From positions 1-64,000 of IMG/VR virus record IMGVR_UViG_3300032282_006300: DNA of 64,000 nt; one strand, 5' to 3'. Below, in pieces: positions 5,157-38,235 of this stretch (position 1 is the first letter of the stretch; each line of letters starts with the position of its first letter). The notes beneath the pieces are model-generated. The model saw only the letters and a program-made list of their open reading frames with translations, searched no databases and had not been told where the DNA came from. Source of the DNA: a virus. The position numbers and the translations under genes are program-made.

Positions 5157-6737
5157 TCAGTCTTGAGCAATGATCGCGGCAGATGGCTCAGATTGAGCGC
5201 TGGTGCCTTCAGCATTTACTGCGGCAACCTTGAAAGTGTAAGAAGCAGCCGCAGTCAGGCCCGTCAAAGTTAGCAATTGATCATCATTACCGGTTGACTG
5301 AGTTGCCTCAGCCGTTACACCATTAAGGTAAGGAGTTACAATGTAGTCGGTAATTGCGGATCCACCTGTTTGATCCAAGTCCCAAGTAAGGTCAACCTCA
5401 CCGACACCGCTACCCGTAGATCCAGCGACATCAATTGGCGCCTTGGGAGCAGCATCTTCAAGCAAGTAGAAAACAATCTCGTTAGAAACCGGCGAATCTA
5501 GACCATCCTCGTTGATGGCAAAAACAAGTGCGCTGTAAGTGCAGTTAATGTCAAAACCATAGTTCATGTGCTTGTAGGTACTTGAAGTGCTCCAAGTGTC
5601 CCACCAACCTTCAGTCTCATTAACTAAAAATACAACGTAGAAATCTAGAGGCGAACCGCCCGAATATGTGGGCGCAGTCCATGCTAGGTCAATTTCGCCA
5701 TTACCAAGATAGGTAGTAGCGAGGCTCGTCGGAGCCGATGGAGCACCAGTTCCAGAAAGCAGGTTTCCGTAAGGGTCAACGATACCGGCCCGCTCATTCT
5801 CATCAGTGTATCCACCGGGCTTGTTTGAATCGTTCTCGTCTGGGTTCCAACCCTGAGCGGTGCTGGACCAAGAAGAAGGCTCACTTGTACCGTTGTCGTT
5901 AATTGCATAAACGCGAACCCGAACGTCCACATTGGGGAGTGCATCTAGGAATTTGCCAAAGAAAAATTCGTTGCGGCTGGCGCGGTAAGTACCACTAACA
6001 ACACTTGGGTAGTTGCCATCAAAAACTTCAGAAAGTTCAATGATGTATCCACGGATTGGGGCATTTTCCGGATCGGGTGATGGGGTCCAGAAAGCGCGAA
6101 CTCCACGAGATGCGTAGTTAAGCCAAGCACAATCAGGTGCATCCGGAACATTATCGTTTAGAACGGGAACTGCACCGTAGCCAGTTCCGATCTGCGAAGT
6201 CTCAACAGTTTCACTGTAATTGTAAGTGGTAGGAATTGGAGCAATGCCCGAACTTGCAATCGAGTCAGAGCGAGTGGTGTCTTTGATTGTTACCGGAGCG
6301 CCAATAAAAGGTTCACGGTAAACATTGTATGTCGGCTCAACACCCAAGGGCTGATCCACATTAGTCGTGGGGATCGTTTCTGAGATGTCGGTGTTAACGG
6401 GTGTCGTTGGGAAGAAATCGTTATTCACACCAGCGCTTGTAGTATCACTGGTTACATCTGCGGTGCCCTGCTCGTCGCCATTGTAATCGGTGTAACGACC
6501 AAAAACGGGCTGTTGATCAAGAGTGGGGTGAGGATCAGTACCAGCGCCACCACCGAAGATCGTGGTATCTGCGTTGCTTACTTCTGCAGATACATCACCT
6601 TCACCGGCAGTTCCATCAATGCCGCTGGCGTTTTCGGTGTCGGTAGTTACAGGCTCCCGATTAAGCGGATAACCTTCTCCGTCAACACTTACACCAAAAA
6701 TTGGGAAATTTTCATTCTCAATAACATTGCTTGGCAT
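5157..6737 (-). CDS. Virion surface protein with fibronectin type III repeats (paralogue of 3192-5129)
   Basis: FN3 motifs (LTGLTAAASYTFKVAAVNAEGTS). Shares ENENFxIFGVS and LNREP segments with its neighbour. Confidence 0.8.
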   Translation of the reverse strand: MPSNVIENENFPIFGVSVDGEGYPLNREPVTTDTENASGIDGTAGEGDVSAEVSNADTTIFGGGAGTDPHPTLDQQPVFGRYTDYNGDEQGTADVTSDTTSAGVNNDFFPTTPVNTDISETIPTTNVDQPLGVEPTYNVYREPFIGAPVTIKDTTRSDSIASSGIAPIPTTYNYSETVETSQIGTGYGAVPVLNDNVPDAPDCAWLNYASRGVRAFWTPSPDPENAPIRGYIIELSEVFDGNYPSVVSGTYRASRNEFFFGKFLDALPNVDVRVRVYAINDNGTSEPSSWSSTAQGWNPDENDSNKPGGYTDENERAGIVDPYGNLLSGTGAPSAPTSLATTYLGNGEIDLAWTAPTYSGGSPLDFYVVFLVNETEGWWDTWSTSSTYKHMNYGFDINCTYSALVFAINEDGLDSPVSNEIVFYLLEDAAPKAPIDVAGSTGSGVGEVDLTWDLDQTGGSAITDYIVTPYLNGVTAEATQSTGNDDQLLTLTGLTAAASYTFKVAAVNAEGTSAQSEPSAAIIAQD

Positions 6738-6767
6738 GGGCCTCTACCTTTTCCTTTGGGTTGCTGG

Positions 6768-7385
6768 TTATTCGGTGACGGCTGAATCTTCAGTTACCAC
6801 GGGGGCAACCTTTTCAACAACCTTCTTCTTACGAGTTGAACGCTTCTTCGCAATGGGGGGCATTGCAGACATGTCACCTTCGCCTGCAGTTGTTGCCTCC
6901 TCCGTCGGAGCCTCGACGGCATCCACCGTAGCATCGGTAGGCACATCAGTTACCTCTTCAACTACGGTTTCTGCCACCGGGGTTTCGGCAACAACTACAG
7001 GTTCGGGAATATCAACCGAGACATCAGCAACGACTGCTTCAGCAACCGGTGCTCCACCGAAAGAACGCTTGGTAAGTGTATTTCGACTTTTATCAGCCTT
7101 CAGGTCGGCAAGGGAAATCCCGTACTGAGCCTCAAGGATGTGCAGGATGTCTCCACCTGCGAGATTGGCAGAATGACCGATAACGGCATCCTTCAACTGT
7201 TGTGCTTTATTCTCAGCGACTTGCTCTTGCAATTTAGCCTCCTCAGCCAGGATTTCTTCACGAGTTTTTGGTTTAGTTTCAAAAATTTCGTGAACAAACG
7301 CGATGTTATCTGTGGTACCCGACTGAACACCAGTGGTATCAATGGTGCCAGAAATATCTGTGAGGTTTCGCTGAGTTTTAGCCAT
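6768..7385 (-). CDS. Hypothetical low-complexity acidic protein
   Basis: 205-aa ORF, translationally coupled to the upstream gene. Confidence 0.6.
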   Translation of the reverse strand: MAKTQRNLTDISGTIDTTGVQSGTTDNIAFVHEIFETKPKTREEILAEEAKLQEQVAENKAQQLKDAVIGHSANLAGGDILHILEAQYGISLADLKADKSRNTLTKRSFGGAPVAEAVVADVSVDIPEPVVVAETPVAETVVEEVTDVPTDATVDAVEAPTEEATTAGEGDMSAMPPIAKKRSTRKKKVVEKVAPVVTEDSAVTE

Positions 7386-8651: not shown

Positions 8652-9089
8652 TTAAGCGTGTAAAGATGCCCGCAATTGCCAAGACCATTTTTGGTGCATG
8701 TCAATGCGTTCTGCAATAAAGTTTGCTACGCCTTGTTCGTTTTCTTCATTAGCAACATTAAATGCTTGTTTCAGTTTAGCAATCAACATATCGTTGGACT
8801 GTAGAAGGTCCGAAGTCATAGTTTGTGCATTTGAGGTAACATCACTTTCAGGAAGTGTGCTCAACTCAAGAACGCGAGAAATCTTGTAGGGAGCATAGTC
8901 ACCAAGTTTACGAATGTTTTCTGCAAAAGGATCAATGCTTCCATCAGCATCTACGTAAATGTTCTCAAACAATGCGTGGTATTCGGAGAAATCTTTGCCT
9001 TCCACGTTCCAATGGTATCCGTGGGCTTTGAACTTAAACACAACAAGGTCGGCAACAAGAACCTTGAGGTTCTCGGTAAGTTCAGACAT
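8652..9089 (-). CDS. dps: Dps (DNA-protecting mini-ferritin)
   Basis: KAHGYHWNVEG..F..YH..FE..Y...ID..AE.IR.LG ferroxidase motifs and K..W.L end. Start MSELTE with AGGAG RBS. Confidence 0.92.
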   Translation of the reverse strand: MSELTENLKVLVADLVVFKFKAHGYHWNVEGKDFSEYHALFENIYVDADGSIDPFAENIRKLGDYAPYKISRVLELSTLPESDVTSNAQTMTSDLLQSNDMLIAKLKQAFNVANEENEQGVANFIAERIDMHQKWSWQLRASLHA

Positions 9090-9212
9090 TTTTCTCCTTA
9101 GTTCTTCAAACTTTCGGAGTTGATTTAAGTGATTACACAGTACCCCGCCACGGTAACGATCCGTGTTCCTCAGATTAAAAGTCTGATGCATCACCTTAAT
9201 GCTTGCAGGGCG

Positions 9213-9286
9213 CGACCCTGATCGGACTCGAACCGACGACATCCACCGTGACAGGGTGGCACTCTAACCAACTGAGTTACAAGGCC
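9213..9286 (-). tRNA. tRNA-Asp (GTC)
   Basis: GGCCTTGTAACTCAGTTGGTTAGAGTGCCACCCTGTCACGGTGGATGTCGTCGGTTCGAGTCCGATCAGGGTCG folds as a cloverleaf with anticodon GTC and a TTCGA T-loop. No encoded CCA. Confidence 0.93.
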
Positions 9287-9316
9287 TAGCAAAACAAACA
9301 TACACCATAAGTTTAG

Positions 9317-9357
9317 AAAAACCAAAAAGCCCCGGTGCCAAAGCACCGGAGCCTTTT
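9317..9357 (-). terminator. Rho-independent terminator after major capsid gene
   Basis: GCTCCGGTGC-TTTG-GCACCGGGGC hairpin followed by a T tract. Confidence 0.8.
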
Positions 9358-9372
9358 GTTAGACCTAAAAAA

Positions 9373-10359
9373 TTAGGACTTGGTGATCGTTGCAATACCG
9401 CGAGGGTTAAGAATAGCCATCGAAACCATCTCGTCAAATACCCAACCCTTCCAGAATGCCTCAACCTGGTGGTTCTCTTCAACGTCAAGTGAGTACAGGA
9501 CGGGGAAGACACCCAAGAAGTTAGGTTCAGGGGTGAGGAACACCTTGTTCTGAGGAACAATGATCGAACGCTGAATCTGGAACTCACCGAATGAGGTGAT
9601 CGTCTCTCCAGCAACCACGCGATCCTTGAACGCCCAACCGGTCTGGTTAATGTCCCAGCGGTAGAGGTCACGGAAGTCGTAAGGGTTGATGAGGATACGA
9701 GCCGACTGCAGTTCGTGCAGGTCGGTCTGGCTAACTGCCGAGTAAAGTGAACCCGGGGTCAGGTAACCCGATCCTTCAGTGATGTTGTGGTTCGGTGAAA
9801 CCGTGTGGTCTGGACGTGATGCATAGTCCGTCACAGCAGCCTGCAAGATCACGAGAAGACGTGAGTCTTCCTGCTTCAAGATGGCCTGCTTGGTCTCGTC
9901 CTGAGCCTGCTCAACGGCGTTGATACGCAGGTAGAACAGGTCTTCCTTACGAATCGCGGGACGCGAAGCAATACGGAAGAAGCGAACCGGAACGCGCTTG
10001 CCTTCGAACGGAGTCACTCGGACTTCGCCTTCAGTACCGGACATGATGTATGCCTGGCCCAAGTCATCCCAAACGTCATACTCAACCGGAGTACCAGGAG
10101 TTACCGGGTCCTCAACAAGCACGTTACGGGTAATACCTTGGTAACGCAGTTTCAATTGAATCGGGCCGACCATACCGACACCGAGACGCTTAATACCACT
10201 GACTTCATCCTGAAGGATGAGAGCCATCTTGCGAACCTTGGCCTCGTGGGTCAAAGTCGCACCCGCCTCACGGCGGTTCAAAATTTGAGCAACGTAATCG
10301 TCACTCTTCTTGGCAACCCGGCCCTTGAGGCCATTGCCCGTGTGTGTCAATTGCGACAT
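9373..10359 (-). CDS. Major capsid protein (HK97-like, cluster C/Bxz1-like)
   Basis: 328 aa from MSQLTHTG. PIQLKLRYQGITRNVLVED...ILNPRGI resembles cluster C capsids. Strongly biased codon usage, terminator follows. Confidence 0.88.
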   Translation of the reverse strand: MSQLTHTGNGLKGRVAKKSDDYVAQILNRREAGATLTHEAKVRKMALILQDEVSGIKRLGVGMVGPIQLKLRYQGITRNVLVEDPVTPGTPVEYDVWDDLGQAYIMSGTEGEVRVTPFEGKRVPVRFFRIASRPAIRKEDLFYLRINAVEQAQDETKQAILKQEDSRLLVILQAAVTDYASRPDHTVSPNHNITEGSGYLTPGSLYSAVSQTDLHELQSARILINPYDFRDLYRWDINQTGWAFKDRVVAGETITSFGEFQIQRSIIVPQNKVFLTPEPNFLGVFPVLYSLDVEENHQVEAFWKGWVFDEMVSMAILNPRGIATITKS

Positions 10360-10384
10360 GTTTTTTATTCCTTCCGGGCAATAT

Positions 10385-10912
10385 TTAGCGAAGTCCACCG
10401 ATGGTGATCTTCGTAGCGGAGTTGACCTTAACAAGGCGAGCAACGGGGTCGTTGCTCAAGGTTCCACGGCCGGATTGACCGGCGGGAGCCAACTTGCCCT
10501 GGTTAGCACCATCAACGATGGCGTGGACCAGAACTTCGGTTCCGTCATTGGAGTCATTCCAAGTCGAACCAGTGTCGAATGCGGGAGCAAGAATTTCGAA
10601 TTCAGCATCCGGAGCCGTGACCCACACCGAAAAGGCGTTGATCCCTGAATCAAGAACTTCATCAATTCCGTCGCCACCGACGTAAAGTGCACCAAAACCG
10701 TAAGGAACTTCGTCCTCGGGGGTTCCGTTAGTTGCACCAATCAGGCTGACGTTCTCACCAGTGGTGCGAGCGAAAACCATACCGGGGTAAATGTCAATCG
10801 AACGATCCCAGTCGGAATCGAGAAAGACTGACTTTGGTGTTGCTTGCGTAGCGGAGTACAATGGGCGAATTGTTCGCTTGATGTACGACGTAGCGATCCG
10901 CGTCCTCAGCAT
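10385..10912 (-). CDS. Capsid decoration/cement protein
   Basis: 175 aa immediately upstream of the major capsid gene, IYPGMV motif. Confidence 0.65.
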   Translation of the reverse strand: MLRTRIATSYIKRTIRPLYSATQATPKSVFLDSDWDRSIDIYPGMVFARTTGENVSLIGATNGTPEDEVPYGFGALYVGGDGIDEVLDSGINAFSVWVTAPDAEFEILAPAFDTGSTWNDSNDGTEVLVHAIVDGANQGKLAPAGQSGRGTLSNDPVARLVKVNSATKITIGGLR

Positions 10913-25107: not shown

Positions 25108-25353
25108 TTACTCCGCTTCTTTGGTCACTTCAACAGTATTGGACGTTTCAATCCATACTCTTGCGCCACACGAAAGCGGGTCTTGTGCTTGATAAACAAC
25201 TCTGGCGGCCTCCAGACCGTCCTGCCCATAGATGATGGCAGTGTGAGCGTACCTGTTCTCCTTGTAAGTCTTTACCGTCAGCACAGGCTCGTTAGTGTTG
25301 TTCTTGGCATTGGCTTTAATCTTGTGCTGGTTTACATGAATGATGGTTTTCAT
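25108..25353 (-). CDS. Conserved phage hypothetical protein
   Basis: MKTIIHVNQH...VLTVK...PLSCGARVWIET, a family I recognise as widespread in phages, function unknown. Confidence 0.75.
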   Translation of the reverse strand: MKTIIHVNQHKIKANAKNNTNEPVLTVKTYKENRYAHTAIIYGQDGLEAARVVYQAQDPLSCGARVWIETSNTVEVTKEAE

Positions 25354-25482
25354 TTGACAAACACTTCGTTGGAAGCAATCTCACCCAATGTCACATCGGG
25401 GTGTTGTTCTAGGTATGCGTCAATGAAGTCTAGGTATTCTCCAAACTCTTGCTTGCTTCCCCTGAAGGACAAGACCAATGTC

Positions 25483-25677
25483 TTACTCACCTAGCAACTC
25501 CTTAATGCTTCTGTCGTTATCTGCGTGGCAAGACTGACACATTATTTTGCCTTTAATCTTCTCGCTGTTAGCCCAAAGTGCTTCATTGTCTTCGGTCAAG
25601 TAGATGTGAAAGTCGCCATAGTCAGCGAACTTGCGACCGCACACCAAACACTTTCCTACTTGTGAAAGTCTTGCCAT
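25483..25677 (-). CDS. Small zinc-finger protein
   Basis: CxxC...CxxC with AGGAG RBS. Confidence 0.6.
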   Translation of the reverse strand: MARLSQVGKCLVCGRKFADYGDFHIYLTEDNEALWANSEKIKGKIMCQSCHADNDRSIKELLGE

Positions 25678-30185: not shown

Positions 30186-30719
30186 TGTCCTTTCCTTCCT
30201 GTTGAGTTGTTGGTAATAACCTACACGAAACCTCCGACAATGCTGGGATTTCGCTCGGCGTGTCGCAAACTTTATGAGATTTATTTATTTATTGGAGTCA
30301 CCGGCGTGTCGCTACACGACCTGTGAGTAAATCCTCCCTAACGGACTTTCAGGCAGGGGGTGGGGTGATTGCCCCTAAACAGGGGGTAAATGGCTTAGAA
30401 CGGCGCACAGGGCTTCTCCGGCGATTTGGCTAAAGTCAAGCATTTGGCTCGGCGTGTCGGGAACTTTCGTGACAATAGCAACCGCACGACTTGACCTGCC
30501 CTTCGCGCTCGTATGACTCACGACACGCCGAGTGCTGATGTGTCAAGCACCAGCCGAAACTTGTGGTACGGTCGGAGGTGGACTTTGGCTTCGGCTTCGG
30601 CTTCGGCTTTGCCCTAGTCATTGGCTTGCCCCCCTGAGCAGGGGCAGAGGTCGCTGGGCGAGTTCGGGAGTCAGCCCCCTGCCGGTGACATAACGGACAT
30701 TTCGGGCATAGCCCGATTT

Positions 30720-30943
30720 GAGTCCGAACTGAAAGTCCGGCGGCGAACTTGCTGGCTGACCCTGAGAGTCCACACAAGGTGTCCCAGCCTGTGATTGTGA
30801 CAAAGACCGGCGACAGTCCGAAGCCCCCTGGAATAGTCCGAACTCAGTCCGGTCATAGTCCCCTAATAGGGTGGTACGCATTAGTCCGAAGTCAGTCCGA
30901 GCATAGTCCCCTATGCTCAGTCCGACCTCAGTCCGGTAGTTCG
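30720..30943. repeat. Iteron-like array of (T/C)AGTCCG units, often 11 bp apart
   Basis: About 9 AGTCCG plus AGTCCC/AGTTCG variants in 220 bp. Confidence 0.85.
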
Positions 30944-32511: not shown

Positions 32512-33348
32512 CTATCCCTCCTCGTAGAAGTCAAACGAGTTCCAAGCCTCGTCCTCGTCCCAATCGTTGTCCCAAGCAGAGCCGTCAGACCCAAGCAAGG
32601 GCACATAGTCAGGGTTGGCAATCTCAGCCAACACTTCATAGCGACAGGTACGCAACTTCTGGAAGTCGCAGTCGCGCGGAACGGATACAACATCGCGAGG
32701 GTTGATTTTCACCTTGACCACGCGAGGTGCGAAGGTGGAGGCGTAGTCCCAAGTGCCAGCGTGGAGTCCGGTAGAACAGCCCTCAAAGGCGTTTGCGTTC
32801 ACGCGATTGCGAGGCATTTCCACGATTGACCCAACAGAGTTCGGGACATTACCGTAGACGGTCTGACCATCTACGATTGCTTCCCCAGAGTGAACCGAGG
32901 TGAGGTCGTCCCTCAGACCCTTGTAGGCGATAAAGTCACCGTCCTCAGTAATGGTGAAGTTCCGGTCGTTGAGCCAAGTGTAAAGTTGCTCACGACTGTT
33001 GCCATTACGGTTCTGGAGTACCTTCTCGTAGAAGTTCACGAGAGGCACGAAATCGTAGATACCCTGCTTCTGAAAGCGCGAGATTTGCGCCGACAAAGAG
33101 TTGTCCACGAGTTCACCATCAACATACACACGACCATCGCTGATTGAGATACGGTCGCTGACCTTCTCAAAGGCTTGTCGTGCTTGCTCGGCTAGGTCAA
33201 ACAAGCCAAACACTTGAGGGTCGTCCTTGATAACTCCCTCAATAATCTGCGCGAACGCAGGGTGATTGTTGGTGGCTGTGTAGACCTTGCCACCTTGTAG
33301 CACCGTAATGGCTGAGCCATTACCTGTGCTGATGAGTTCGTAAAGCAT
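32512..33348 (-). CDS. rIIB: rIIB-like protein
   Basis: NPS-like NRNGNSREQLY...ITEDGDFIAYK...VEMPR...CSTGLHAG...KINPRDVVSVP.D....R.CRYEV. Confidence 0.9.
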   Translation of the reverse strand: MLYELISTGNGSAITVLQGGKVYTATNNHPAFAQIIEGVIKDDPQVFGLFDLAEQARQAFEKVSDRISISDGRVYVDGELVDNSLSAQISRFQKQGIYDFVPLVNFYEKVLQNRNGNSREQLYTWLNDRNFTITEDGDFIAYKGLRDDLTSVHSGEAIVDGQTVYGNVPNSVGSIVEMPRNRVNANAFEGCSTGLHAGTWDYASTFAPRVVKVKINPRDVVSVPRDCDFQKLRTCRYEVLAEIANPDYVPLLGSDGSAWDNDWDEDEAWNSFDFYEEG

Positions 33349-33482: not shown

Positions 33483-35519
33483 TCACTCGCTGGACTGCTG
33501 ACGCAGGGCATAGGAAGCGTTGAGGTAGATAACAAACTCAGCCCTGACGAGTTCACTATCGGTCACACGACCCAGCCAGATTTCGTTGAGCAGGGGATAA
33601 CTGTGAAGGCTGGTCTTGTAGTCGCTGACCAAAGACTCACCGATAGAGAACGAAAGCGTTCGTGCCAACTTGCGGAACTTGCTCACGACCTCACCGACCT
33701 TCTCATAGCAATCTTTCAGGTCGCGCAGTTCGTCAATGAACTGCTGGTCGTCTACCAATCCCTCTAGCGCGTCAGCGAGTTTGGCTGGCTGACCGAACGA
33801 GTTGTTATTGGAGTTGTAGAGAACAACCTCGCGCGATGTGAACGCTGTCAATGCTTCAGCATAGTCGCGCTTGATTGCTTGTTGGACTGTCAGAGCCAGA
33901 GGGTTCTCTCGCAAGAACTTGTCCTGACGGTTCTTGGCAACTTCCACGACCGCGTAGTTGTCCTCCACAAAATGCTCCACAATACGATTGCGCGAATAGC
34001 CACGGTACTCGTCATTGCTCAGTTCCGTTGGCGAGAAGTAGAGAACCTGCTTGCCAGCAAAGTCAATGCTGTCGGCTGGCATAAGCCCTCCGTTGTTGGT
34101 GACAAGTTCCCAATCCTTAGTGCGTGTTGGGGAGTTCGCGGTGGTCGTTCCAACAGATTGCTTGTGAACTTTGATTGCCTTGATTGTTGAGTAATCAACG
34201 GCAAGAACATTGACCCACTCGCCGACAAAGTTGGTGTCTGCGAATAAGTATTCCGTTGGAGCAGTTTCCAAAGCGAGCGTGTCCACATAAGCGTTCACTC
34301 TCTCAATGGTCGTGGCAGAAGGGTACGACTCACTGCTGTATCCGGTGACAAGAAGTACCTTGCCCAAGTCGCTCGCAATAATAGAACTTTGACGAGAGTT
34401 CTTACGACTACCGTAAGAAGGACTGAGTTGGTGGAGCAGGTAAGAATAACGGAACTGATTGGGCACAGTTTCGCCCCTGAACTCAAACCGCTTGTTGCTG
34501 TCCTCAATGTTGCGCGCAATCGCTCGCCATTGGGTCGCTTCCTCAAAGGCTTCTGCCTTGTTGTTAGCCCTTCCGACATCGGCATAGGCTTTATTGCGTG
34601 CGTTCTTGCGTGCGATGTTCACGAGTTCGGCAAGTCGCTTCTCGGTTCGGTCTGTCAAGTGTAGTTCCTCACGGCTTGGCACGAAGTTGAGTTCGCCCAT
34701 TGGAACTGTGAATACGACAAGGCAATCAAACCAACGGTTGAGTTCGTCTGCGATGTTGCGTGGAGCAGGGTAAGGCACTCCACCCATTACGAAGGTGTGC
34801 GCGCTAATCCTGTCGTCTACCGATTGCGCGCGCCAAGAACTCCAAGCAGGCAGGTTGGTAGCAACAATGGACACATCGTCAGTTCCGACTTCCTTGCCCT
34901 CCACCTTGACATTAGGTTCACCGTCAATCAAGACAGAACCGGACTCCCAGACAGAGAACAGTATCTTAGCCTTGCTTGCGAACTTGTTGTCCGGCTTGGC
35001 TGGGACAGTAATCTTGACTCCGTTGCGTTCGGTCGTGGAGGCGGTGTCCATCACCGACATAGTGCCAGCACCGTCAGTCTTGACTGAGATAAGTACCTCA
35101 GACTTCACACCGTCCTTCACAGCCGTCATAATGAACTGTGAGGCATAGGTCAGGGCAGACTTTGAGCCAAGACCGAGCATACCTGTTTGCTCATTGGACT
35201 CGCGCTTAGTGCTTGCTCCATAGCGTGAGTAGATAGCAGTAATGTCGTCAAGCGACAGCCCTAAGCCAAAGTCCTGAATAGTCAGGAACGGAGAGAGCGT
35301 GTTGGGGAGATTGACCTCAATGGGGGCAGGGTTGCCAGAGGCGATGTGAGAGTCGCGCGCGTTGCTGGAATACTCACGCAAGACTGCCATTTCGGGGTCG
35401 GAGTAGAGGTTGGTCAGAACGCTCATAATGTGAGCGAGCGAGTTCTGGTCAATGCTCATCTCAATGGACTCGCCCTCAAAGGTTGAGGACTTACGAATAC
35501 CTGTCTTTGCTGGTATCAC
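33483..35519 (-). CDS. rIIA: rIIA-like protein (GHKL/HATPase N-terminus)
   Basis: LYSDP.MAVLREYSSNARDSH...IQDFGLGLS...YGASTKR.SN...GMLGLGSKS...SREEL, adjacent to rIIB. Confidence 0.9.
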   Translation of the reverse strand: MIPAKTGIRKSSTFEGESIEMSIDQNSLAHIMSVLTNLYSDPEMAVLREYSSNARDSHIASGNPAPIEVNLPNTLSPFLTIQDFGLGLSLDDITAIYSRYGASTKRESNEQTGMLGLGSKSALTYASQFIMTAVKDGVKSEVLISVKTDGAGTMSVMDTASTTERNGVKITVPAKPDNKFASKAKILFSVWESGSVLIDGEPNVKVEGKEVGTDDVSIVATNLPAWSSWRAQSVDDRISAHTFVMGGVPYPAPRNIADELNRWFDCLVVFTVPMGELNFVPSREELHLTDRTEKRLAELVNIARKNARNKAYADVGRANNKAEAFEEATQWRAIARNIEDSNKRFEFRGETVPNQFRYSYLLHQLSPSYGSRKNSRQSSIIASDLGKVLLVTGYSSESYPSATTIERVNAYVDTLALETAPTEYLFADTNFVGEWVNVLAVDYSTIKAIKVHKQSVGTTTANSPTRTKDWELVTNNGGLMPADSIDFAGKQVLYFSPTELSNDEYRGYSRNRIVEHFVEDNYAVVEVAKNRQDKFLRENPLALTVQQAIKRDYAEALTAFTSREVVLYNSNNNSFGQPAKLADALEGLVDDQQFIDELRDLKDCYEKVGEVVSKFRKLARTLSFSIGESLVSDYKTSLHSYPLLNEIWLGRVTDSELVRAEFVIYLNASYALRQQSSE

Positions 35520-35630
35520 TTTGGAACTTCCCTTCGGTTGTTGTTGGTGACGGTCATCACCTTGTGCCCTAATCATTACACGACAAACGCCGATACTCGT
35601 GGATTGAGTACCGGCGTGTCGCGGATTATT

Positions 35631-36246: not shown

Positions 36247-36271
36247 GACCATTGTCCCACATTGTTCCACT
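36247..36271 (-). promoter_or_regulatory. Short MraZ-type GTGG decamer repeat
   Basis: GTGGAACAAT-GTGGGACAAT-GG on the minus strand, 10-bp period. Confidence 0.4.
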
Positions 36272-36456
36272 ATGTCCGATTTGCTCTGCTCTGTTGAGTT
36301 ATGGCTTTCGCTACCTCAAGCATAGCATCACTTGACCCAAAATCTTGGTATTGACTCTCGGCGTGTCGTGAAAAGATTTATTTATTTTCGGCGTGTCGGT
36401 ACTTGATTTCGCGCCTCAAAAGAGTAAAGTTGAGTTTGGTGCCCAAAAACATTTAT

Positions 36457-36472
36457 TCGTACAGGTGTTCTA
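36457..36472. promoter_or_regulatory. LexA (SOS)-box-like site
   Basis: TCGTAC-AGGT-GTTCTA versus the actinobacterial consensus TCGAAC-N4-GTTCGA (2 mismatches). Confidence 0.5.
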
Positions 36473-36654
36473 ATCCAACGACACTCTGTTGCCTCGGTTC
36501 CCTAACTCACCAGCCTAATGCCAAATGGGGCACTTGTCAAAGACCGACACGCGGTTTGGTAGGTGTTTATCATCACACTCAAATCGGCGTGTCTTGCCAA
36601 GATTTCAGGTATGGTTCGGCTATGGTGGTCGTGCCCACGAGCATAACCTACCTT

Positions 36655-36682
36655 ACTTGACATAATGTGTATTATCGGCGTG
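36655..36682 (-). other. dif-like XerC/XerD recombination site
   Basis: CACGCCGATAA-TACACA-TTATGTCAAGT, an 11-6-11 layout. The XerD arm TTATGTCAAGT and the GCCGATAA of the XerC arm match the actinobacterial dif as I recall it. Confidence 0.8.
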
Positions 36683-36824
36683 AGCCACTACGAGTAGGAG
36701 GTCTAGGCACAAATGCCCTTCAGAAGCCCTGTAAGGCTCGCTGAGGGACTTACCCTCCTTCTGTAGGCAATCACCCTAGCCCTTACCTGTTAGGCGCTCA
36801 TGAAGCCATACAGAGCCTCCAAAT

Positions 36825-36951
36825 CTATCCACAGACCTCACGCCTGTATCCACAGGTTATCCACAGGTCGCAAGTTATCCACAGGTTATCCACAAGGTTG
36901 TCCACATTGTGGATAAAATCTGTGGATAACTTGTCCACAGCCTGTGGATAG
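36825..36951. promoter_or_regulatory. Cluster of 10 DnaA boxes
   Basis: TTATCCACA at 36857, 36875, 36886. TGTGGATAA at 36908, 36921. TTGTCCACA at 36898, 36931. One-mismatch boxes at 36825, 36846, 36943. Confidence 0.9.
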
Positions 36952-37055
36952 TGCCTGTCCGTTATGTCCGATTTGCCAGACACGGGGGGTCTCAGCGCCA
37001 GCCAGACCCGCGGGGAGCCATACCATACCCCTACCCCCGCCGCGCGCGTGGACCA

Positions 37056-37276
37056 TAGTCCGGTCCAGTCCGGTCCGTGAGCATGAGCATGACCGGTGTC
37101 AGTGAGCATGACCGAGTCCGGTGTCAGGGCTATAGTCCGATTTCAGTCCGGCGGTTCCCAAAAATAGTCCGAACTTAGTCCGAAGATCAGTCCGAAGCAT
37201 TTTTAAATAGTCCGGACCCATACATGTAAAAAGTCCTCGGCACATCTAGTCCGAAAATAGTCCGGCCATAGTCCGA
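37056..37276. repeat. Second iteron-like (T/C)AGTCCG array
   Basis: About 12 AGTCCG units, many 11 bp apart, same orientation as 30720-30943. Confidence 0.85.
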
Positions 37277-37370
37277 CACAAGTACGCTCGCGTGACGCTC
37301 GCAACTTAATTCAACTTGTTCTCGCCGCCGACTCTTCTTGCACAGCGAACGTGTCCGTAGGCACAAAAAG

Positions 37371-37420
37371 ATGGTAGAAAGTGGTAGAAAGTGGTGCATG
37401 GTGGGGCTTTGTGGGACTTT
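37371..37420 (+). promoter_or_regulatory. MraZ-type binding array (5 x 10-bp GTGG repeats)
   Basis: ATGGTAGAAA GTGGTAGAAA GTGGTGCATG GTGGGGCTTT GTGGGACTTT. Confidence 0.65.
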
Positions 37421-37575
37421 GCTATTAGATATCTGTTAGTGAACTATTGTCCCTATTCGCACGCTTGATTGTAAACGGTACGGGTAATCTTCCAAACACT
37501 ATCGTCCACATGAACGCTACTATGATGTCCATGAGGATATGATCAGGGTCAGATATGTTTTCTAGGAATTGTTCT

Positions 37576-38235
37576 TTACTGATCATAGGACTGATCGTAG
37601 GTGGGATCGTCTTTGATCTCCCGATAGATTCTTTGGTAATCCATCTTTTCTTTGTAATGTTTTTCACACTGGGGTTGTGTTTGACCACTTGTTGTTACAT
37701 AGTCTGCGAATCTTTTCTCAGGACATTGTGAGCATTTTGTTTGGCTCAATAGTTCACTGGCGACTTTTACGGCGATCCGCGGGGTCTTCCCCTGATATTT
37801 CCCTTCAAGGATCCCGTGTTCGCGCACATGCTCGCGGGCGCGGTTGATCGTATCCTCGTTGGGGTCTTCATGTTCTTCGGGGTCTTGATCAGTCCGTGAC
37901 CAGTCCGCGTGATTAGTCTTGTCCGGGTCGATGCCCTTGTAGGGCAAGGGGTGCTTTCCAGCAGAGTCATAAGCATGCGTGTCGTCGTGCGCGAAGTAGT
38001 GCGATGGGACCTCCATCTTGTCGCCATCGCTGTCTGTCAAGACCCACCCCATCGCCCCGAAACGAAGAGAAGGCTTCTCGCGGATCAGTGCGTGAGCGTA
38101 TTCAAGGCAATTGCCGTGCTGCCAGTCGCGCCAGCCGTGGAGGTTGTATCCTCGCTCTTGGTAGTCCTTCTCCCATTCCGCAGTTTCTAGGCTGTCTTCA
38201 TTGTTTTCAGCGACTTTGTACCATAGGTTAGCCAT
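37576..38235 (-). CDS. MxNLWYKVA-leader protein with possible Cys-His-Asp catalytic domain
   Basis: Shared leader, then GNCLEYAHAL...SHYFAH...YDSAG. Confidence 0.65.
   Translation of the reverse strand: MANLWYKVAENNEDSLETAEWEKDYQERGYNLHGWRDWQHGNCLEYAHALIREKPSLRFGAMGWVLTDSDGDKMEVPSHYFAHDDTHAYDSAGKHPLPYKGIDPDKTNHADWSRTDQDPEEHEDPNEDTINRAREHVREHGILEGKYQGKTPRIAVKVASELLSQTKCSQCPEKRFADYVTTSGQTQPQCEKHYKEKMDYQRIYREIKDDPTYDQSYDQ

Follow-up and report, generated by a model that had tools for sequence, protein, structure and literature searches.

The window analysed here, namely the first 64 kb (64,000 nucleotides) of the complete 123,830-bp viral record IMGVR_UViG_3300032282_006300 (GC content 44.7%), carries at positions 36825-36951 an array of ten DnaA boxes, each with at most one mismatch to TTATCCACA and all packed into 127 bp. 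This array, the sole DnaA-box cluster in the complete phage genome, lies in a long untranslated, repeat-rich region beside a GC-rich block of small genes. The reading that we tentatively favour is that the region may be a boundary element which binds DnaA of the host, similar to Repeat Region 3 of phage T5, the presumptive injection stop signal (iss) of that phage.

The DnaA-box array

Our recount agrees exactly with an earlier note on this DNA, made from the letters alone, which had listed five perfect boxes, two TTGTCCACA boxes and three others with one mismatch in this interval. The array falls into two halves, given here with the start of each box:

36825-36906, plus strand: left half, six boxes (CTATCCACA at 36825, GTATCCACA at 36846, perfect TTATCCACA at 36857, 36875 and 36886, TTGTCCACA at 36898)
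36908-36951, mixed strands: right half, four boxes (perfect TTATCCACA at 36908, minus, and 36921, minus; TTGTCCACA at 36931, plus; CTATCCACA at 36943, minus)

The start-to-start pitches are 21, 11, 18, 11, 12, 10, 13, 10 and 12 bp. The switch of orientation that the note had placed near 36907 is real, with boxes 1-6 all on the plus strand, but incomplete, as boxes 7-10 run minus, minus, plus, minus and box 9 thus returns to the plus strand. As for the note's description of TTGTCCACA as an actinobacterial variant, this is general background that concerns just two of the ten boxes, although analogous phages, discussed below, do infect Streptomyces. The right and left halves form inverted repeats with arms of 13-22 nt and 77-94% complementarity. 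Because inverted boxes make hairpins, the array also draws Rfam matches to microRNA models, which were rejected (32.9 bits against a gathering score of 95).

The whole genome contains 48 sites with at most one mismatch, seven of them perfect, and the array holds ten of the former and five of the latter, where 0.039 boxes would be expected in 127 bp (leading Poisson term approximately 2e-21). A megablast search of the array region against cultured phages gave no match. The phage, recognisable as such by its portal, rIIA/rIIB and replisome genes, encodes no DnaA of its own. Namely, DnaA domain IV (PF08299) has no match at E<=1 in the whole genome, and the DnaA ATPase model (PF00308) has a single match, which stays below threshold (19.5 bits, cut-off 23), in an open reading frame (ORF) that is IstB/DnaC-like. 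In other words, the note's remark that no dnaA gene lies nearby holds for the entire genome, and no dnaA or dnaN remnants were found either. Given so dense a cluster in a phage without dnaA, recruitment of host DnaA is the natural reading, and the array would, to judge from its letters, provide a high-affinity landing pad for that protein.

The untranslated region and the GC-rich block

The array lies within the longest gene-free stretch of the genome, which runs from approximately 36.3 kb (possibly 35.99 kb) to 37.575 kb, a length of 1.3-1.6 kb, and lies between a 219-aa gene and the homologues of rIIA and rIIB. Between 35994/36300 and 37575, none of the ORFs has family support, and the sole ORF over the array is considered non-coding because a 5-nt insertion/deletion (indel) among strains falls inside it. 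Apart from the boxes, the region and its surroundings contain the following features:

36956-36976, minus strand: two CGGACA units, to the right of the boxes
36962-36975, in minus-strand reading: 14-mer GGCAAATCGGACAT, similar to the DRD repeats of T5 (12 of 13 positions of the T5 DRD core)
36266-36284, minus strand: second DRD-like copy, approximately 550 bp beyond the other side of the boxes
36980-37056: GC-rich spacer with short direct repeats (CCAGAC..GGGG and TACCCC units)
37057-37275, plus strand: iteron-like array of 12 AGTCCG units, all on one strand, eight of them being TAGTCCG
37576-38235, minus strand: last gene before the untranslated region, 219 aa, of no family, with a C-terminal Cys-rich motif
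33483-35576, minus strand: rIIA homologue, first large gene downstream of the untranslated region (phrog_612, 3e-87)
32512-33348, minus strand: rIIB homologue, C-terminal part (phrog_609, 6e-60)
30694-30930, plus strand: second iteron array, 10 (A/T)GTCCG units, nine of them on the same strand, in an intergenic gap inside the block

The iterons often follow one another at 10-12 bp, with one more unit at 37352. The genome has 31 same-strand copies in all, and the array accounts for 12 of them, against 0.034 expected in that span. The second iteron array lies 6 kb from the main one and has no DnaA boxes; the two could pair or loop. The GC-rich spacer is among the most stable duplex DNA of the genome and varies by a 12-nt unit in relatives. 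In particular, indels among strains fall within the repeats, namely a 12-nt TACCCCTACCCC unit at 37025 (metagenome runs X2 and X3) and a 5-nt GTCCG indel at 37067 among the iterons (all four runs, including the probable source of the record).

The untranslated repeat region appears to form the upstream border of a block of small genes together with rIIA and rIIB, in a genome whose genes are nearly all on the minus strand. This block, directly downstream of the array, is set off by a GC content of 0.52-0.56 as opposed to 0.40-0.47 in its flanks. It spans approximately 26.0-37.2 kb, with a sharp edge at 26.0 kb, and measures about 10.7 kb, or approximately 8.6% of the genome, once the untranslated region is subtracted. 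Its small genes, rIIA and rIIB are preceded by an upstream cassette, of which 22 copies lie between 26853 and 36593 (21 of them in gene sense) and none elsewhere in the genome. The cassette consists of GAAATAA..CGACACGCCGG centred near -50, a variable -35 region, an extended -10-like GTGTA(A/T)GTTAG, a leader, a ribosome-binding site and the start codon. That the best-conserved part lies near -50 suggests an activator- or factor-dependent promoter class. The block and flanking proteins otherwise gave no informative family.

Comparison with phage T5

As parts of a preprint on T5 by Davison describe it (10.1101/866236), all 25 of the T5-like phages examined carry approximately eight DnaA boxes in inverted repeats, in large untranslated regions of the left terminal repeat. 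In T5 itself, according to the same parts (10.1101/866236), Repeat Region 3 is 1.2 kb of untranslated DNA that straddles the inner end of the left terminal repeat, comprises a 131-bp box-bearing inverted repeat and then nine DRD repeats, and is the presumptive iss, at 7.9% of the genome. The T5 record AY587007.1 has the same layout. Namely, 8657-10856 is unannotated, our scan places boxes at 9358-9439 (within IRD'/IRC') and at 6045/6118, and the DRD repeats, with the consensus TGTGC(A/G)AATCCGACA, lie at 9672-10409.

The order of the parts is common to T5 and the phage studied here: block genes, then boxes, then a series of direct repeats. In both, more than 1 kb of untranslated DNA lies beside the genes that are expressed first, or, in our phage, presumably so. 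The inverted arrangement of boxes covers 131 bp in T5 and 127 bp here, the same-strand short direct repeats after the boxes number nine (DRD) and twelve, respectively, and the DNA transferred first makes up 7.9% of the T5 genome, to be compared with approximately 8.6% for our block. Transcription of the T5 genes dmp, A1 and A2 also points away from the repeat regions and toward the end. What is more, the 13-nt core of the T5 DRD is matched at 12 of 13 positions at two sites in the gap, 36273 and 36965, the latter of which abuts the last box; a match of this quality was reached in 3 of 2000 shuffles of the gap, in a test that was post hoc. The two systems differ in the density of boxes, T5 having four per inverted repeat and one perfect box in Repeat Region 3, whereas our phage has ten, all with at most one mismatch and much more densely set. 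Their replisomes are also unrelated, that of our phage being of DnaE type.

Analogous phages with terminal repeats

A set of analogues was assembled from 34 larger viral records that share the rIIA homologue at 31-47% identity. In 17 of the 34, two of which look like the same phage, 2-4 perfect boxes are grouped at one place; with one mismatch allowed, the groups comprise 2-9 boxes and always lie in ORF-poor gaps. A terminal repeat was measurable in nine records, and in seven of these nine (G017, G027, G015, G004, G020, G005 and G003) it is 10.7-11.4 kb long, with the box group ending 49-81 bp before its right copy. These seven, all of them Streptomyces-phage records, have 2-3 boxes and a conserved block, TTGTGCACAATAT...GTGTAATGG, directly before the first base of the approximately 11-kb repeat, and this conserved block may be part of the site at which ends are formed.

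Two of the loci match the cultured Streptomyces phages EGole and BillNye at 100%, and a query with the EGole junction matched 53 records, with boxes confirmed just in the records that were retrieved. In EGole, a gap of 1.7 kb without annotation, flanked by gene sets that converge, contains the boxes and the start of the repeat, and the terminal repeat of the EGole type is GC-richer than the adjacent unique DNA (0.56 vs 0.49). Phages of cluster BE1 are, in the part of their description used here, siphoviruses of more than 130 kb with terminal repeats of about 11 kb (PMC5764925). No published account of DnaA boxes in Streptomyces phages was found in the literature searched.

The Streptomyces phages (EGole, Peebs, Jay2Jay, NootNoot and relatives) resemble our phage in having rIIA, a long unannotated gap, a GC-richer block of approximately 11 kb and a DRD-like AAATCGGACAT motif near the boxes. 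They differ from it in having just 2-3 boxes and in flanks that cannot be aligned beyond the boxes. The 14-mer GGCAAATCGGACAT also adjoins the boxes of BillNye, and in several EGole-type phages a DRD-like motif lies approximately 230 bp inside the repeat. Placing the junction of our own phage by homology was attempted and abandoned, as the seven Streptomyces junctions align with one another and not with the phage beyond the boxes.

Box arrays were also seen in other phages. The metagenomic phage G030 has nine boxes in approximately 110 bp (6021-6129), with GACATACCCCCGGGGG-type palindromes flanking them and, after the array, an ORF (6186-6869) with an HNH-like Cys/His motif. A blastn search also brought up cultured phages of 40-47 kb with short DnaA-box arrays, namely Vibrio phages BD1 and BD5, Escherichia phage P483 and nasanit, and in BD1 the array lies at most 65 bp from the end of the record.

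Relatives and conservation

All ten boxes are retained, together with iterons and cassettes, in a contig of 98% identity that comes from a different metagenome. The region is also covered by contigs of three further freshwater/lake studies, which differ by 12-27 substitutions and by small indels that fall in repeats only. The freshwater/lake labels of the metagenome runs, as well as the Streptomyces hosts of the analogues, are just hints at the identity of the host. A further relative, L262 (rIIA 45% and rIIB 74% identical), has six boxes in approximately 160 bp, plus a convergent pair 1.4 kb further up, and one of its box pairs stands where gene orientation diverges. Its boxes have an AT-rich tract directly 5' of them and a GGCAAAACGGACAT-type DRD-like motif 45 nt past the last one. 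After the boxes comes its own block with 16 copies of a cassette and with homologues of the block genes of our phage, rIIA lying approximately 7 kb downstream. More than three boxes per 200 bp were found in two of 80 metagenome loci, these being the 98%-identical contig and L262, and most other contigs were short. A single-protein rIIA search of viral contigs returned no relatives; an alignment-based search did, and none of 80 loci reached that density within 7 kb of rIIA.

A tandem double box occurs in at least 119 viral contigs, and among those listed 13 have 7-11 boxes in 150 bp. These contigs have nothing in common with our phage beyond the boxes and a few scattered protein matches, and some of them may be contamination with bacterial oriC. 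Box clusters at the ends of such contigs were discarded as evidence, because repeats of this kind break assemblies.

At the far edge of the block, positions 25144-25354 are a hot spot of contig breaks, with a variant that skips 139 nt and with loose ends in three runs, and an ORF on the plus strand (25183-25494) has two homologous places each in L262 and L263. There may thus be a short repeated or mobile element at this edge. A joint from 39000 to 25208, present in one run, was rejected as a terminus, since the short element at approximately 25.2-25.35 kb occurs in several contexts. Several assemblies also break at approximately 36336-36376 and at 37570-37605, on repeats in both cases, and these breaks were not taken as ends either.

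Replication genes

The genome, a circularised assembly closed by an end overlap of 83 bp, encodes the following replication proteins, 36-50 kb from the array (coordinates of the full record):

74212-77613: DnaE-type polymerase
79666-80784: DnaG-type primase
82999-84312: DnaB helicase
84303-85166: IstB/DnaC-like AAA+ protein

RecA, a class II ribonucleotide reductase and a 5'-3' exonuclease are also encoded outside the window. No initiator gene was recognised among the phage proteins; the ORF upstream of the loader was considered as an initiator and rejected, being transglycosylase-like. Elsewhere in the window, adjacent genes for tRNA-Lys(ttt) and tRNA-Asp(gtc) lie on the minus strand at 9140-9286, where one assembly of the probable source breaks.

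Proposed role of the region

How might such a boundary element work? A DnaA oligomer on the ten boxes, together with a second factor on the CGGAC iterons, would build a bulky nucleoprotein complex. This complex would sit at the junction between the remaining genome and a block that is presumably expressed first, probably enters first and may be a terminal repeat collapsed in the record, and it would pause, anchor or insulate the DNA until proteins encoded by the block act.

That said, several observations weigh against this reading. To begin with, the cassettes escape a generic sigma-70 scan (7 sites vs 7.7 expected), and TTGAC-N16-19-TAnnnT occurs in 3 of 21 of them, so that their nature as promoters, and with it the early timing of the block, is something we infer. 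The contig of the probable source is continuous through both proposed borders of the block. The runs contain just contigs of the phage, with flat depth as a consequence, for which reason we infer, and do not read off, the collapsed terminal repeat, drawing indirectly on the 10.7-kb GC-rich cassette block and on the analogues whose boxes lie 49-81 bp from a repeat of approximately 11 kb. The terminal-repeat evidence from the analogues is likewise qualified. The seven cases represent one phage cluster, and in the other two records with a measurable repeat, G009 and G012, whose repeats measure 2262 and 789 bp, the boxes precede it by 5.1-5.8 kb. Moreover, no homologue of our phage's portal is detectable in the Streptomyces phages, which makes these analogues that share rIIA and the module, not close kin. 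Instead, the portal has its relatives in Rhodococcus phage E3 and in Mycobacterium phages of the genus Bixzunavirus (approximately 42-44% identity), and no box cluster was found in these portal relatives (E3 and two Bixzunavirus records).

The parallel with T5 has its own weak points. Two-step injection has, to our knowledge, never been shown outside T5-like phages. A tblastn search with 14 proteins of the T5 left terminal repeat against the genome revealed no homologues of dmp, A1 or A2 (best E 0.067), the twelve iterons share just the CGGAC core with the T5 DRD, and the boxes stand just outside the repeat in the Streptomyces phages and just inside it in T5. In T5, a role for membrane-bound DnaA is proposed as a hypothesis only, in the parts of the preprint considered here (10.1101/866236).

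A bolder version of the boundary reading would make the combination of DnaA boxes and a DRD-like repeat an ancient, cross-phylum, cis-acting entry checkpoint, by which large terminally redundant phages (T5 of E. coli, phages of Streptomyces and of freshwater hosts) use host DnaA to brake or anchor the genome at the edge of the early block that enters first. We regard this generalisation as unlikely. If it were true, DnaA would be a general host factor of phage entry or of the early phase of infection, beyond its part as the initiator of replication.

Alternative explanations

The earlier note had offered two functions for the array, a DnaA sink or an origin. Its premise stands, namely a dense, bona fide cluster in a phage without dnaA, to which recruiting the DnaA of the host would come naturally; neither of the two functions is the one best supported. 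Context that the letters of the array alone do not show points to another role, namely the long untranslated repeat region bordering a block with its own cassette, the analogues whose boxes lie at the borders of terminal repeats, and the precedent of T5. Ranked by how well they survive, the alternatives to the boundary reading are an iteron-type origin, a transcription barrier and a DnaA sink.

In the first of these, a somewhat unlikely one in our judgement, host DnaA and an iteron protein of the phage would open the DNA and the DnaC/IstB-like loader would place DnaB. The phage has its own loader, DnaB, primase, DnaE, RecA and exonuclease, yet no DnaA and no recognised initiator, and it is the lack of a recognised initiator that keeps the idea alive. 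Plasmid origins of the iteron type, P1 oriR and RK2 oriV among them, likewise combine DnaA boxes with helically phased iterons, and head-to-tail boxes at a pitch of 11-12 bp in two opposed halves resemble oriC. Among the other intergenic sites of the genome, none looked more like an origin, and the AT-rich tract directly 5' of the boxes in L262 would fit an origin as well.

The DNA around the array speaks a different language. The earlier note had seen no AT-rich unwinding element, and none flanks the array: the most AT-rich 100-bp window in 36300-37600 has an AT content of 0.62 (80th percentile), and the flank at 36980-37080 falls in the 0-2nd percentile of duplex instability. The further checks that the note had suggested, a search for a DNA unwinding element (DUE) or DnaA-trios and a look at GC skew, turned up neither of the two elements at the array and no change of skew. 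In the relevant part of the source, DnaA-trios are defined by a box with at most two mismatches and at least three trinucleotides within 0-16 nt of it (PMC8287927). All boxes of the array lie within that number of mismatches, but three or more NAN trinucleotides in a row do not occur up to 16 nt from the outer boxes; the only such runs in 36701-37100 are at 37079 (plus) and 36763 (minus), 128 and 62 nt from these boxes. Third-codon-position GC skew is 0.146-0.177 on both sides of the array and does not switch at 36.9 kb, which is weak evidence in a phage. The distance of 36-50 kb to the replication genes, with no Rep-like gene adjacent to the array, and the existence of a second iteron array without boxes also argue against an origin. 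Finally, the author of the T5 preprint deems origin function of the counterpart unlikely, at least in the parts on which we draw, T5 origins mapping to the centre of the genome (10.1101/866236). If the array were an origin after all, this would be a lytic phage that has its own loader, helicase, primase and polymerase and borrows just the initiator of its host.

The second alternative is a DnaA-dependent barrier or switch of transcription, which would block read-through into the block, or would tune the first cassettes, 240-470 bp downstream, according to the DnaA status of the host. As all genes are co-directional through the region, a barrier between two transcription units is needed, and the stretch from 37576 to the array showed no strong intrinsic terminator. 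In EGole and T5, the corresponding gap lies between units that converge, one box pair of L262 lies at a divergence of gene orientation, and DnaA acts as a repressor, an activator and a roadblock in bacteria. Ten high-affinity boxes, however, far exceed known DnaA-regulated promoters, no box overlaps the core of a cassette, and the fixed distance between the boxes and the terminal repeat in the Streptomyces phages would be left unexplained, all of which makes this account improbable.

A DnaA sink, with replicating phage genomes titrating host DnaA and so shutting off initiation in the host, is in our opinion quite improbable. It would agree with ten near-consensus boxes that have no DUE and form the only cluster of the genome, with the multiplication of sites that amplification of the phage would bring, and with the comparably expanded nine-box array of G030. 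In most analogues, on the other hand, just 2-4 boxes are kept, and both their position and their neighbours are conserved; so few boxes at a conserved place point to a role in cis over bulk titration; early in infection, moreover, the array would presumably be present in a single copy. That the array is a functionless relic, be it a fragment of host oriC that was captured or repeats that expanded by chance, is hardly credible: the block is indeed GC-richer than the remaining genome and the copy number of the repeats does vary among strains, but the boxes are kept in the relative with 45% rIIA identity and in many analogues whose flanks are otherwise unalignable, and no trace of dnaA or dnaN accompanies them.

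Comparison with known systems

In bacterial oriC, the basal unwinding system, as far as the cited source covers it here (PMC8287927), shares with the array closely spaced, phased, high-affinity boxes in two opposed groups. Unlike oriC, the array lacks DnaA-trios within 16 nt, an AT-rich DUE, a dnaA or dnaN gene next to it and a switch of skew. Loci that titrate or inactivate DnaA, namely datA of E. coli and the DnaA-box clusters of Bacillus and Streptomyces, are likewise clusters of high-affinity boxes without an unwinding element, and the ten boxes found here compare with at least 4-5 boxes as the criterion for such loci. The array differs from them in belonging to a lytic phage, in its conserved position relative to gene blocks and terminal repeats, and in the presence of a second family of repeats. 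Iteron origins with DnaA boxes, such as those of P1 (oriR), RK2 (oriV) and pSC101, also have boxes adjacent to direct repeats near the helical pitch, at least four by the criterion applied, to be compared with the twelve seen here. Our array differs from these origins in that no adjacent AT-rich region or Rep gene was found (the flanking proteins being without family), in an iteron core of just 6-7 nt and in the second, box-less iteron array 6 kb away.

The literature searched for DnaA-box clusters in lytic phages yielded essentially the T5 preprint, where, in the parts considered, the subject appears as a hypothesis on the injection stop signal (10.1101/866236). A DnaA-box and repeat region resembling that of T5 is seen here in an unrelated freshwater phage, and its occurrence at the terminal-repeat border of cultured Streptomyces phages is apparently undescribed. 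The recurrence of boxes, direct repeats and a long untranslated edge region in unrelated phages, those of Actinobacteria and an uncultured one from fresh water, suggests a general solution and not an oddity of T5, and the Streptomyces phages offer culturable, non-pathogenic systems in which to study what stops DNA transfer of the T5 type and what part DnaA plays in it.

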